From the NCBI RefSeq assembly GCF_011045215.1, contig NZ_CP049201.1: a stretch of 64,000 nt of DNA; one strand, given 5' to 3'. This document shows, in pieces, positions 2,372 to 3,600 of the stretch. The number at the start of each line of letters is the position of its first letter. Positions within the stretch are counted from its first letter, which is position 1. The notes beneath the pieces are model-generated. The model was not told where the DNA came from and did no database searches. It saw only the letters and a program-made list of their open reading frames with translations. The DNA is from Escherichia coli. Its GTDB lineage: Bacteria; Pseudomonadota; Gammaproteobacteria; Enterobacterales; Enterobacteriaceae. The translations under genes and the position numbers were made by a program.

Positions 2372-2890
2372 TGTTTATCTCCTTTTTTGTTGTTTTCAAG
2401 ATATTAATGACACCAGATTTTACGGTATTCAAATTTATTTTTGTTTTATTAGGGGGTATCTGATTTGGTTTGCTTAAGGTTATTCTTAACTTAATGGAAC
2501 ATAGGGACTTTAAGGTTATCCTATGTGATGTGGATTAACCATTTTCACAAGAATATTTATCCATATTGGAGCTAATCTGTATAAAGGAGATAATTAGAGG
2601 CTCAGATATTAATACTATAGAGAGTAATGCTATAGGATATGGAAAAGATCATGTAATATAATGGTGGTTATTAATGTTCATCTTAATTTTGGAAATTAAA
2701 TGAGTAGTGTTTTTTATGAGGTTTTTTGCTGTTGATAATTCTTATTAAAATTTGAAGAGCATCCTTTAAGTTATTCGGCTTGAGGATGCTCATTTAAAAT
2801 TTAAGCAGCGTAGTCTTTTTCAACAGCCAGGAAGGGGTGATGCTGCCAACTTACTGATTTAGTGTATGATGGTGTTTTTGAGGTGCTCCA

Positions 2891-3133
2891 GTGGCTTCTG
2901 TTTATATCAGCTGTCCCTCCTGTTCAGCTACTGACGGGATGGTGCGTAACGGTAAAAGTACTGCCGGACATCAGCGCTATCTCTGCTCTCACTGCCGTAA
3001 AACATGGCAACTGCAGTTCACTTACACCGCTTCTCAACCCGGTACGCACCAGAAAATCATTGATGTGGCCATGAATGGCGTTGGCCTCAACACGATTTTA
3101 CGTCACTTAAAAAACTCAGGCCGCAGTCGGTAA
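2891..3133 (+). CDS. insA: IS1 InsA-like protein, 80 aa (appears to carry an in-frame ~11-aa deletion in the HTH region)
   Basis: [16 protein letters not shown]...[25 protein letters not shown]...[15 protein letters not shown] matches IS1 InsA; segment between NGVG and LNTIL is missing relative to the InsA I recall. Confidence 0.75.
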
Positions 3134-3177
3134 CCTCGCGCATATAGCCGGGCAGTGACATCATCGTCTGCGCGGAA

Positions 3178-3555
3178 ATGGACGAACAGTGGGGCTACGT
3201 CGGGGCTAAATCGCGGCAGCGCTGGCTGTTTTACGCGTATGACAGGCTCTGGAAGACGGTTGTTGCGCACGTATTCGGTGAACGCACTATAGCGACGCTG
3301 GAGCGTCTTATGAGCCTGCTGTCACCCTTTGACGTGGTGATATGGATGACGGATGGCTGGCCGCTGTATGAATCCCGCCTGAAGGGAAAGCTGCATGTAA
3401 TCAGCAAGCGATATACGCAGCGAATTGAGCGGCATAACCTGAATCTGAGGCAGCATCTGGCACGGCTGGGACGGAAGTCGCTGTCGTTCTCAAAATCGGT
3501 GGAGCTGCATGACAAAGTAATCGGGCATTATCTGAACATAAAACACTATCAATAA
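3178..3555 (+). pseudogene. insB: IS1 insB (transposase catalytic part); upstream insB frame interrupted by TAG at 3157-3159
   Basis: ORF matches InsB C-terminal 125 aa ([22 protein letters not shown]...HYLNIKHYQ); in the InsAB' frame the sequence reads ...[25 protein letters not shown] where canonical IS1 has Gln. Confidence 0.7.
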
Positions 3556-3600
3556 GTTGGGACCATTACCAAATAGTTTATATGCTAAAAATTTAGGGAA

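Follow-up and report, generated by a model that had tools for sequence, protein, structure and literature searches.

The 64-kb stretch of Escherichia coli DNA analysed here (the window) very likely carries a non-autonomous relic of an IS1A-like element, sitting within an island at ssrA at the site of a deleted Kiwa operon. Taken as an element, it is an ordinary decayed IS1 pseudogene of a known kind, already flagged in public annotation, and such decayed insertion sequences abound. What the analysis adds is its position in place of a Kiwa operon and the present predominance of the Kiwa-less allele. This replacement explains the absence of a target-site duplication and shows the loss of Kiwa from a widespread defence island through an IS event, a tidy, unsurprising example of IS-mediated defence-system loss. 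The features of the relic and its immediate surroundings are collected in Table 1.

Table 1. Features of the IS1 relic and its flanks, in window coordinates
Feature	Position	Strand	Remarks
Hairpin	2757–2791	−	9-bp stem GAGCATCCT ... AGGATGCTC; just downstream of kwaB stop
kwaB 3' remnant	2801–2836	−	last 11 codons and stop, PFLAVEKDYAA*
IRL	2836–2858	+	23/23 to search pattern; identical to IS1A
Truncated insA	2891–3133	+	80 codons and TAA; 80 vs 91 residues
Deletion scar	3077–3084	+	sole surviving copy of 8-bp repeat GGCGTTGG
−1 frameshift motif TTAAAAAAC (A6C)	3107–3115	+	intact
Amber TAG in InsAB'/insB frame	3145–3147	+	IS1A has CAG (Gln)
Remaining insB' coding sequence (DDE domain)	3148–3555	+	N-terminus cut off by amber
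IRR	3548–3570	−	20/23 to search pattern
Spacer between IRR and hsdR stop	3571–3600		30 bp; part of former hsdR–kwaA intergenic region
hsdR, type I restriction subunit R	3601–6840	−	convergent with IS1; split ORFs

We aligned the element (2836–3570, plus strand) to IS1A of K-12 (NC_000913 19796–20563). The copy measures 735 bp against 768 bp in IS1A, and the 33 bp that are absent correspond to IS1A positions 242–274. Identity over the 735 bp present is 97.3%, which is not a chance match. An earlier, sequence-only reading had recognized a degenerate IS1 about 30 bp from hsdR and about 33 bp under normal length; the alignment bore this out, with exact boundaries and a gap of 30 bp from IRR to the hsdR stop codon (3601–3603, minus strand). 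There are 20 substitutions relative to IS1A in total, including the amber change, and 16 of them are transitions. The ends were searched as ∼23-bp imperfect inverted repeats (GGTGATGCTGCCAACTTACTGAT / GGTAATGACTCCAACTTATTGAT), a pattern for which zero matches are expected by chance (100 shuffles). At the right end, IRR reads GGTAATGGTCCC... where IS1A has GGTAATGACTCC..., and the three changes sit at positions 8–10, where the canonical IRL and IRR already differ. A promoter-like site at 2843–2870 overlaps IRL. The same end-pattern search found no second IS1, a possible recombination partner for the junctions, in the 64-kb window.

The truncated InsA reads ...MNGVG / LNTILRHLK..., with the 11 residues CRATARIMGVG gone, so that alignment and translation both agree with the original suggestion that InsA lacks about 11 HTH residues between NGVG and LNTIL. 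The zinc ribbon is retained as a full-length match to the Pfam profile Zn_ribbon_InsA (66 bits). HTH_Tnp_IS1 can still be recognized, at 59.6 bits vs 106.6 for IS1A, with 35 residues placed over 46 profile positions; half of the InsA HTH domain is lost. The octamer GGCGTTGG occurs in IS1A at positions 242 and 275, and it is the 33 bp in between that are missing here, a loss between direct repeats that carries the signature of a putative slipped-strand or short-homology deletion. Past the A6C motif, which has a role in IS1 frameshifting (PMC12428005), the fusion frame reads ...SVTSRI*PGSD..., and the amber precedes the entire DDE_Tnp_IS1 domain (Pfam, residues 91–221 of the conceptual fusion). 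That domain still matches 131 of 131 profile positions (E = 7e-76), and the insB' remainder has five amino-acid changes relative to IS1A. Owing to the TAG, the open InsAB' frame that marks an autonomous element is absent in the window copy. The amber had been placed at 3157–3159. By alignment the CAG-to-TAG change in the insB frame is real, but it lies 12 nt upstream of that position, and 3157–3159 is GAC (Asp), in frame and four codons downstream of the amber. As a separate observation, most lineages keep the shortened InsAB' frame open, which counts against non-autonomy by the deletion alone.

IS1 target duplications are 8–9 bp long and the element 768 bp (PMC12428005). We found no duplication at 2827–2835 and 3571–3579, where one had been proposed: the two 9-mers are CCAGGAAGG and AAATAGTTT, the left flank ends ...CAGCCAGGAAGG, and the right flank begins AAATAGTTTATATG.... 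The duplication is missing because IS1 stands in place of 1,561 bp of kwaB–kwaA DNA, comprising all of kwaA and kwaB except the last 11 codons of kwaB. In pairwise BLAST against the Kiwa-bearing genome JX21CE33 (locus L005), window 1500–2836 aligned to 1963–3300 and window 3571–5000 to 4862–6292, giving breakpoints at 3300/4862 and flanks that are collinear with the Kiwa allele right up to the IS1 ends. This ancestral allele runs from the left flank through kwaB and kwaA to hsdR without IS1, as it does in N1718, and its KwaB and KwaA are full-length PADLOC hits (E = 8e-165 and 4e-95). The 36-nt kwaB stub of the window is collinear with the JX21CE33 kwaB end, PFLAVEKDSAA*, and base 2836 is common to the stub and to the first G of IS1. 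On the other side, the spacer aligns to L005 from 4862, which is 21 bp upstream of the kwaA start codon. The claim that the element had inserted downstream of hsdR therefore stands as to its position and falls as to simple insertion, since the Kiwa genes were replaced.

Kiwa consists of KwaA, a four-TM membrane protein, and KwaB, a DUF4868 protein (PMC11785009). Complete kwaA–kwaB pairs occupy the exact same place in sister alleles; the window has no adjacent kwaA and kwaB, and all that is left there is the 3' stub with a hairpin that may be a terminator. The hairpin was read directly from the sequence, as our terminator scan misses loops >8 nt, and it is possibly the orphaned terminator of the Kiwa operon. 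The scan, within the same loop limit, found no terminator between hsdR and IS1. Absent duplications usually result from adjacent deletion or IS–IS recombination (PMC11708052). The E. coli IS deletions described there resemble our case in having an IS without duplication and flanks that are non-adjacent in the ancestral sequence; here, in contrast, an old event has become fixed in a widespread island allele, and the IS has since decayed.

We proceeded to search 5,426 complete E. coli genomes with the joined left and right flanks. At least one flank was found in 318 of them, and both flanks lay in one place in ∼270. The spacing was 735 bp in all 33 full-coverage rows of a sample spread over the ∼270 genomes, and the joined-flank search, with full-coverage spacing read in those 33 rows, gave no contiguous empty site among the complete E. 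coli genomes; its half-matches pointed to the Kiwa allele. Kiwa was uninterrupted between the same flanks in 20 genomes, including JX21CE33, N1718 and ETEC E24377A; all 20 were single uninterrupted matches, and none was an intermediate with both IS1 and intact Kiwa. Of the complete E. coli genomes that have the island, ∼85% carry the Kiwa-less allele (∼270 vs 20). A different, IS-free internal Kiwa deletion was present in at least nine genomes (e.g., 2017.20.01CC). Outside E. coli, the same 735-bp element with identical junctions was recovered from Citrobacter sp. R56 and Kluyvera cryocrescens NBRC 102467, in an island ∼97.6% identical. A scan of species representatives for the deletion junction returned two real hits, both in this same island, and all four metagenome contigs with the junction (4/4) also came from it. 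A third species-representative hit was rejected, being a 21-mer matched by chance within the hsdM-like gene of a MAG. Among 72,556 plasmids the junction occurred once, in a chimeric copy.

The 900-bp left flanks of five IS1-bearing loci are 99.6%–99.9% identical to each other and 98.3%–98.6% identical to the Kiwa allele, and the junctions of IS1-bearing loci are identical to the base. Together, these similarities indicate that the replacement of Kiwa by IS1 would trace back to a single founding event. The right-end variant of the element (717A, 759–761 GAC, in IS1A numbering) is essentially confined to the ssrA-island locus in E. coli. We considered whether it is a mobile isoform found elsewhere and rejected this, as the 319 records at ≥99% match the 318 genomes with the locus.

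The closest complete genome to the window is 19AR1724 (99.9% over 7 kb), in which the locus lies in a ∼28-kb island between glaH and ssrA. Its genes include an integrase, a large serine recombinase, two ParB genes and hsdM–hsdS–hsdR, together with three ankyrin-repeat genes, a relaxase and a SIR2 gene; in the window, the tmRNA gene lies at 16204–16566. The island looks like a mobilizable defence island at ssrA, and a literature search for a published description of it found nothing relevant.

We compared diagnostic markers, in IS1A numbering, between the window and ten copies read from other records, and the changes fall into five successive steps. Nearly all copies at the site have 69A, 118T, 124T, 127T, 717A and 759–761 GAC (step 1), the exceptions being the Kluyvera copy, which has 717C, and a chimera in ST540, which keeps 759–761 GAC only. 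The 33-bp deletion is found together with 358A, 396C, 414G, 594T and 654T in all 735-bp copies (step 2). All 735-bp copies but that of L6-21 share 448T, 489A and 500A (step 3). The amber (343T) comes with 104A in the window, 19AR1724 and TUM9812 (step 4), and 230G (InsA M59V) is seen in the window only (step 5). The deletion is old and shared and the amber recent, and from the series a datable order of decay emerges, with the deletion first and the amber last. Two of those ten copies, from 19AR1724 and TUM9812, have the amber. Seven complete genomes match the window IS1 at 99.7%; the two that were read both have the amber, and, going by their match, the five further genomes probably carry it too. 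Most genomes match at 99.5%, and 042 and APEC O78 (99.5%) and C 236-04A (99.6%) all have CAG. The insA stop has been lost (329 T→C, TAA→CAA) in several lineages, which fits drift. In MIN11, the same junctions enclose an intact IS1 of 768 bp whose ends are founder-type and whose centre is IS1A-type; this copy may represent the ancestor before decay or a product of repair by gene conversion. Flank comparison was uninformative on MIN11, with hsdR being mosaic and 95%–98% identical among islands.

Public annotation treats these copies unevenly. RefSeq marks those of 19AR1724 and TUM9812 as an IS1 pseudogene (“programmed frameshift; internal stop”) and lists the CAG-bearing 665-nt CDS of 042, APEC O78 and C 236-04A as a non-pseudo “IS1 family transposase.” The latter is a warning, in that many genomes have this CDS annotated as a normal IS1 transposase despite its partial DNA-binding domain.

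Could the element be an intact known isoform, with lesions that reflect a misremembered reference? IS1 isoforms are many and differ by 1%–10%, and the RefSeq listing of the orthologues' CDS as non-pseudo would agree with this, but we give the idea next to no credence. In place of an intact isoform with a sense codon, the alignment to IS1A shows a 33-bp gap and TAG for CAG at 3145–3147, even if 3157–3159 is itself a sense codon; the HTH match is halved; near-identical copies are flagged by RefSeq as pseudogenes with an internal stop; and the junction is known from one locus only among species representatives and metagenomes, plus the one plasmid chimera in 72,556, with no sign of proliferation. 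A simple insertion near hsdR, whose 9-bp duplication has since mutated away, is extremely unlikely. The element does lie in an AT-rich intergenic stretch, and AT-rich intergenic DNA is typical of IS1 targets; its flanks, however, are 1,561 bp apart and collinear in the Kiwa alleles of JX21CE33 and N1718, and the 9-mers at its two ends bear no resemblance to each other. Sequencing or assembly errors are just as improbable a source of the lesions. Only seven changes in 7 kb separate the window from its closest relative, and one of them is a homopolymer difference of a typical error type (T7→T6 at 1704), yet the 33-bp deletion recurs in hundreds of independent assemblies, and the IS1 amber also stands in two further assemblies, with five more genomes at the same 99.7%. 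This argument covers the two shared lesions, the deletion and the IS1 amber.

The sequence-only reading had called the element probably immobile. For autonomous movement this holds: with a stop ahead of the DDE domain and the HTH partly lost, the window copy is predicted to be unable to make transposase, and the zinc finger and HTH are both reported to be required for binding to the inverted repeats (PMC12428005). Even so, the relic would not be inert, as orthologous defective copies show end-precise changes in their flanks. In L6-21, IRR, which keeps the locus-specific GAC 8–10 bp from its tip, is joined precisely to window position 9950, and hsdR, hsdS and hsdM are gone. In TUM9812, IRL of an amber-bearing copy is joined precisely to a truncated ypjA. 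ST540 has the chimera between IS1A and the resident, with a new left flank that includes tRNA-Ile, and by overall identity (99.3%) the VE-V10-F copy is nearer to a chimera that has IS1A-type ends than a typical resident is. Such end-precise junctions in orthologues suggest that transposase from other IS1 copies can probably still act on the ends; these other copies are numerous, at a median of 11 places per genome. Judging from the orthologous deletions and the IS1A chimeras, the relic appears still to take part in rearrangements. On a Klebsiella pneumoniae IncL/M plasmid, we found a 735-bp IS1 that has the resident-type deleted centre and IS1A-type ends, is flanked by an 8-bp duplication (CCCTTTTT) and adjoins ISEcp1-blaCTX-M-14. 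This copy may stem from transposition of a deleted chimera or from later conversion of an IS1A that had inserted there. Full-length copies at 98.9%–99.1% to the plasmid copy are also on record and, in the one case examined, proved to be ordinary IS1A.

These observations bear on a further alternative, that the shortened InsA and InsAB' are functional variants (a trans regulator or an active transposase) and the 735-bp form a mobile isoform. The deletion is in frame and InsAB' is open in most of the ∼270 genomes, the post-deletion insB changes comprise four synonymous vs four missense and one nonsense (with missense below strict neutrality), defective copies have changed their flanks precisely at the ends, and the plasmid copy with the same centre has its 8-bp duplication. 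We nevertheless judge this alternative very unlikely. The substitution counts are too small to show selection, and there has been no spread: the junction keeps to one locus in the 270 E. coli genomes, as it does in the two real hits among species representatives and in the four metagenome contigs. The insA stop lost in several lineages and the amber in another look like drift, and the reported requirement for both zinc finger and HTH in binding the inverted repeats (PMC12428005) argues against a working variant. As for the plasmid copy, its ends are of the IS1A type, and an IS1A may have inserted there and then been converted; the many other IS1 copies in these genomes can supply transposase for the end-precise changes.

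We therefore favour a decayed, non-autonomous IS1 at the site of the Kiwa deletion, with a history that would run as follows. An IS1A-like element would have landed in or beside kwaA–kwaB, then directly downstream of hsdR. An IS1-associated deletion would next have taken out 1,561 bp, either through intramolecular transposition, as a one-ended adjacent deletion, or by recombination of two IS1 copies, leaving the last 11 kwaB codons on the left flank, the hsdR–kwaA spacer on the right and no duplication. The order of insertion before deletion is presumed; adjacent deletion and IS–IS recombination are equally compatible with the data, and no intermediate was found. Slippage between the GGCGTTGG repeats may then have deleted 33 bp and with them 11 HTH residues that both InsA and InsAB' would need for end binding. 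Point mutations, mostly G:C→A:T transitions, would have piled up, and in the window's sub-lineage the CAG→TAG change would stop InsAB' ahead of the DDE catalytic domain. What remains is two ends and 700 bp of homology to other IS1 copies, a potential substrate for transposase acting in trans and for homologous recombination. In its overall likeness to IS1A (768 bp; insA, insB and InsAB' by −1 frameshift), the window copy retains IRL, gene order, A6C, the zinc ribbon and the DDE domain; it differs in being 33 bp shorter, with a truncated HTH, an amber before the DDE domain, three IRR changes and no duplication.

A bolder reading takes the predominance of the Kiwa-less allele and its spread to Citrobacter and Kluyvera as the result of selection against Kiwa and not of hitch-hiking, and the relic as a trans-activated breakpoint that still remodels the island, in view of the hsdRSM loss in L6-21 and the ypjA junction in TUM9812. 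We regard this as doubtful. Were it true, one possible reason for selection against Kiwa would be its response to conjugation: according to PMC11785009, Kiwa responds not to phage alone but also to the conjugation of plasmids.

Finally, the IS1 amber had been described as the second CAG-to-TAG-like lesion in the island, beside one in hsdR. Both ambers are real in this sequence, but they are not a linked phenomenon. The hsdR amber is Q380* (CAG→TAG at window 5701–5703 on the minus strand, i.e., G→A at 5703 on the plus strand). 19AR1724 has CAG at codon 380 and an intact 1,079-aa protein, and the mutated base is G, not A, in all seven other genomes aligned at the site. The hsdR amber is private to the window, and the IS1 amber is shared with other strains. 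C→T transitions are the commonest spontaneous change, and the two ambers, which differ in age, arose independently as such transitions and need no common cause. The homopolymer change at 1704, by which the window also differs from 19AR1724, frameshifts an ankyrin gene; this frameshift, the hsdR amber and the IS1 change at 3065 are all private to the window.

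The IS1 relic, a degenerate IS1 copy standing in place of the Kiwa anti-phage genes kwaA and kwaB, is borne by an island of ~28 kb integrated at ssrA. The island carries an integrase, a serine recombinase, a relaxase, a SIR2 gene, two ParB genes, three ankyrin-repeat genes and a type I R-M system. In K-12, this position is taken by the CP4-57 prophage.

Coordinates of features in the window and in comparison loci (L-numbers) from other records; L005 is the Kiwa-bearing JX21CE33 locus
Feature	Coordinates	Strand	Remark
ssrA island	window 1 to ~16600		bears the IS1 relic
Ankyrin-repeat gene	window 1386-2371	-	neighbour of the IS1 relic
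hsdR	window 3601-6840	-	
hsdR Q380* (CAG to TAG)	window 5701-5703	-	inside hsdR
tmRNA	window 16204-16566		ssrA island site
Orthologous 735-bp IS1	L004 3301-4035		L6-21
Amber-bearing IS1	L017 2501-3235		TUM9812
IS-free Kiwa deletion	L007 2619-3000		2017.20.01CC; segment lost, L005 2917-4503
21-mer match	L013 9452-9472		MAG JALWPK010000093.1, within hsdM-like gene
Chimeric 735-bp IS1	L018 2501-3235		K. pneumoniae plasmid pRIVM_C016570_2

Rearranged orthologues of the relic had junctions lying precisely at an IS1 end. In E. coli L6-21, the right end of the element was joined exactly, at L004 4036, to the sequence corresponding to window 9950; this fusion point is 6.4 kb further right, with hsdR, hsdS and hsdM deleted, and a second IS1 (89% identical, inverted) lies 370 bp to the left of the orthologous copy. 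In E. coli TUM9812, the left end of the copy was joined exactly to a truncated ypjA autotransporter gene, so that this island lacks its left portion. Such a junction suggests that an end-precise deletion took place later than the loss of the element's own transposase.

Kiwa has also disappeared without an insertion sequence. In E. coli 2017.20.01CC, kwaB and part of kwaA were deleted, leaving a kwaA 5' fragment; this deletion is independent of the IS1-replaced allele. Nine or more complete genomes share this IS-free pattern; the ssrA island has thus lost Kiwa on at least two occasions.

The same island segment, with identical IS1 junctions, was observed in Citrobacter sp. R56 (L011) and Kluyvera cryocrescens NBRC 102467 (L012), the segments being ~97.6% identical over 5-7 kb. 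This would imply either intergeneric transfer of an already Kiwa-less island or mislabelling of these two genomes. The 21-mer deletion junction also matched an unrelated gammaproteobacterial MAG, but only by chance: beyond the 21-mer, the MAG had no similarity to the window's first 9 kb (IS1 included).

The insA stop codon is variable. A TAA to CAA change at position 329 of IS1A, the K-12 reference IS1 (window 3131), extends the InsA frame in L6-21 (L004), Citrobacter sp. R56 and loci L015 and L016, in lineages that include E. coli 042 and APEC O78; the window retains TAA.

By alignment, the hsdR amber is private to the window among the genomes aligned: plus-strand position 5703 is A in the window and G in 19AR1724, its closest complete genome, and in all seven other genomes aligned at the site. 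Barring sequencing error at this codon, the strain is predicted to be restriction-deficient and modification-proficient. Four of the seven differences between the window and 19AR1724 (7 kb compared) fall in the ankyrin-repeat gene beside the relic. A T7 to T6 change at 1704 causes a frameshift (226 aa vs. 328), and three further private substitutions (1804-1805, 1994) all lie within 300 bp; these changes could be sequencing error or local decay.

The deleted IS1 centre was also found on a plasmid. The ends of the pRIVM_C016570_2 element are of the IS1A type, and its centre matches that of the ssrA-island relic exactly, 33-bp deletion included; the element is bounded by an 8-bp duplication (CCCTTTTT) and adjoins ISEcp1-blaCTX-M-14. 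It was the sole copy of its kind seen among 72,556 plasmids.
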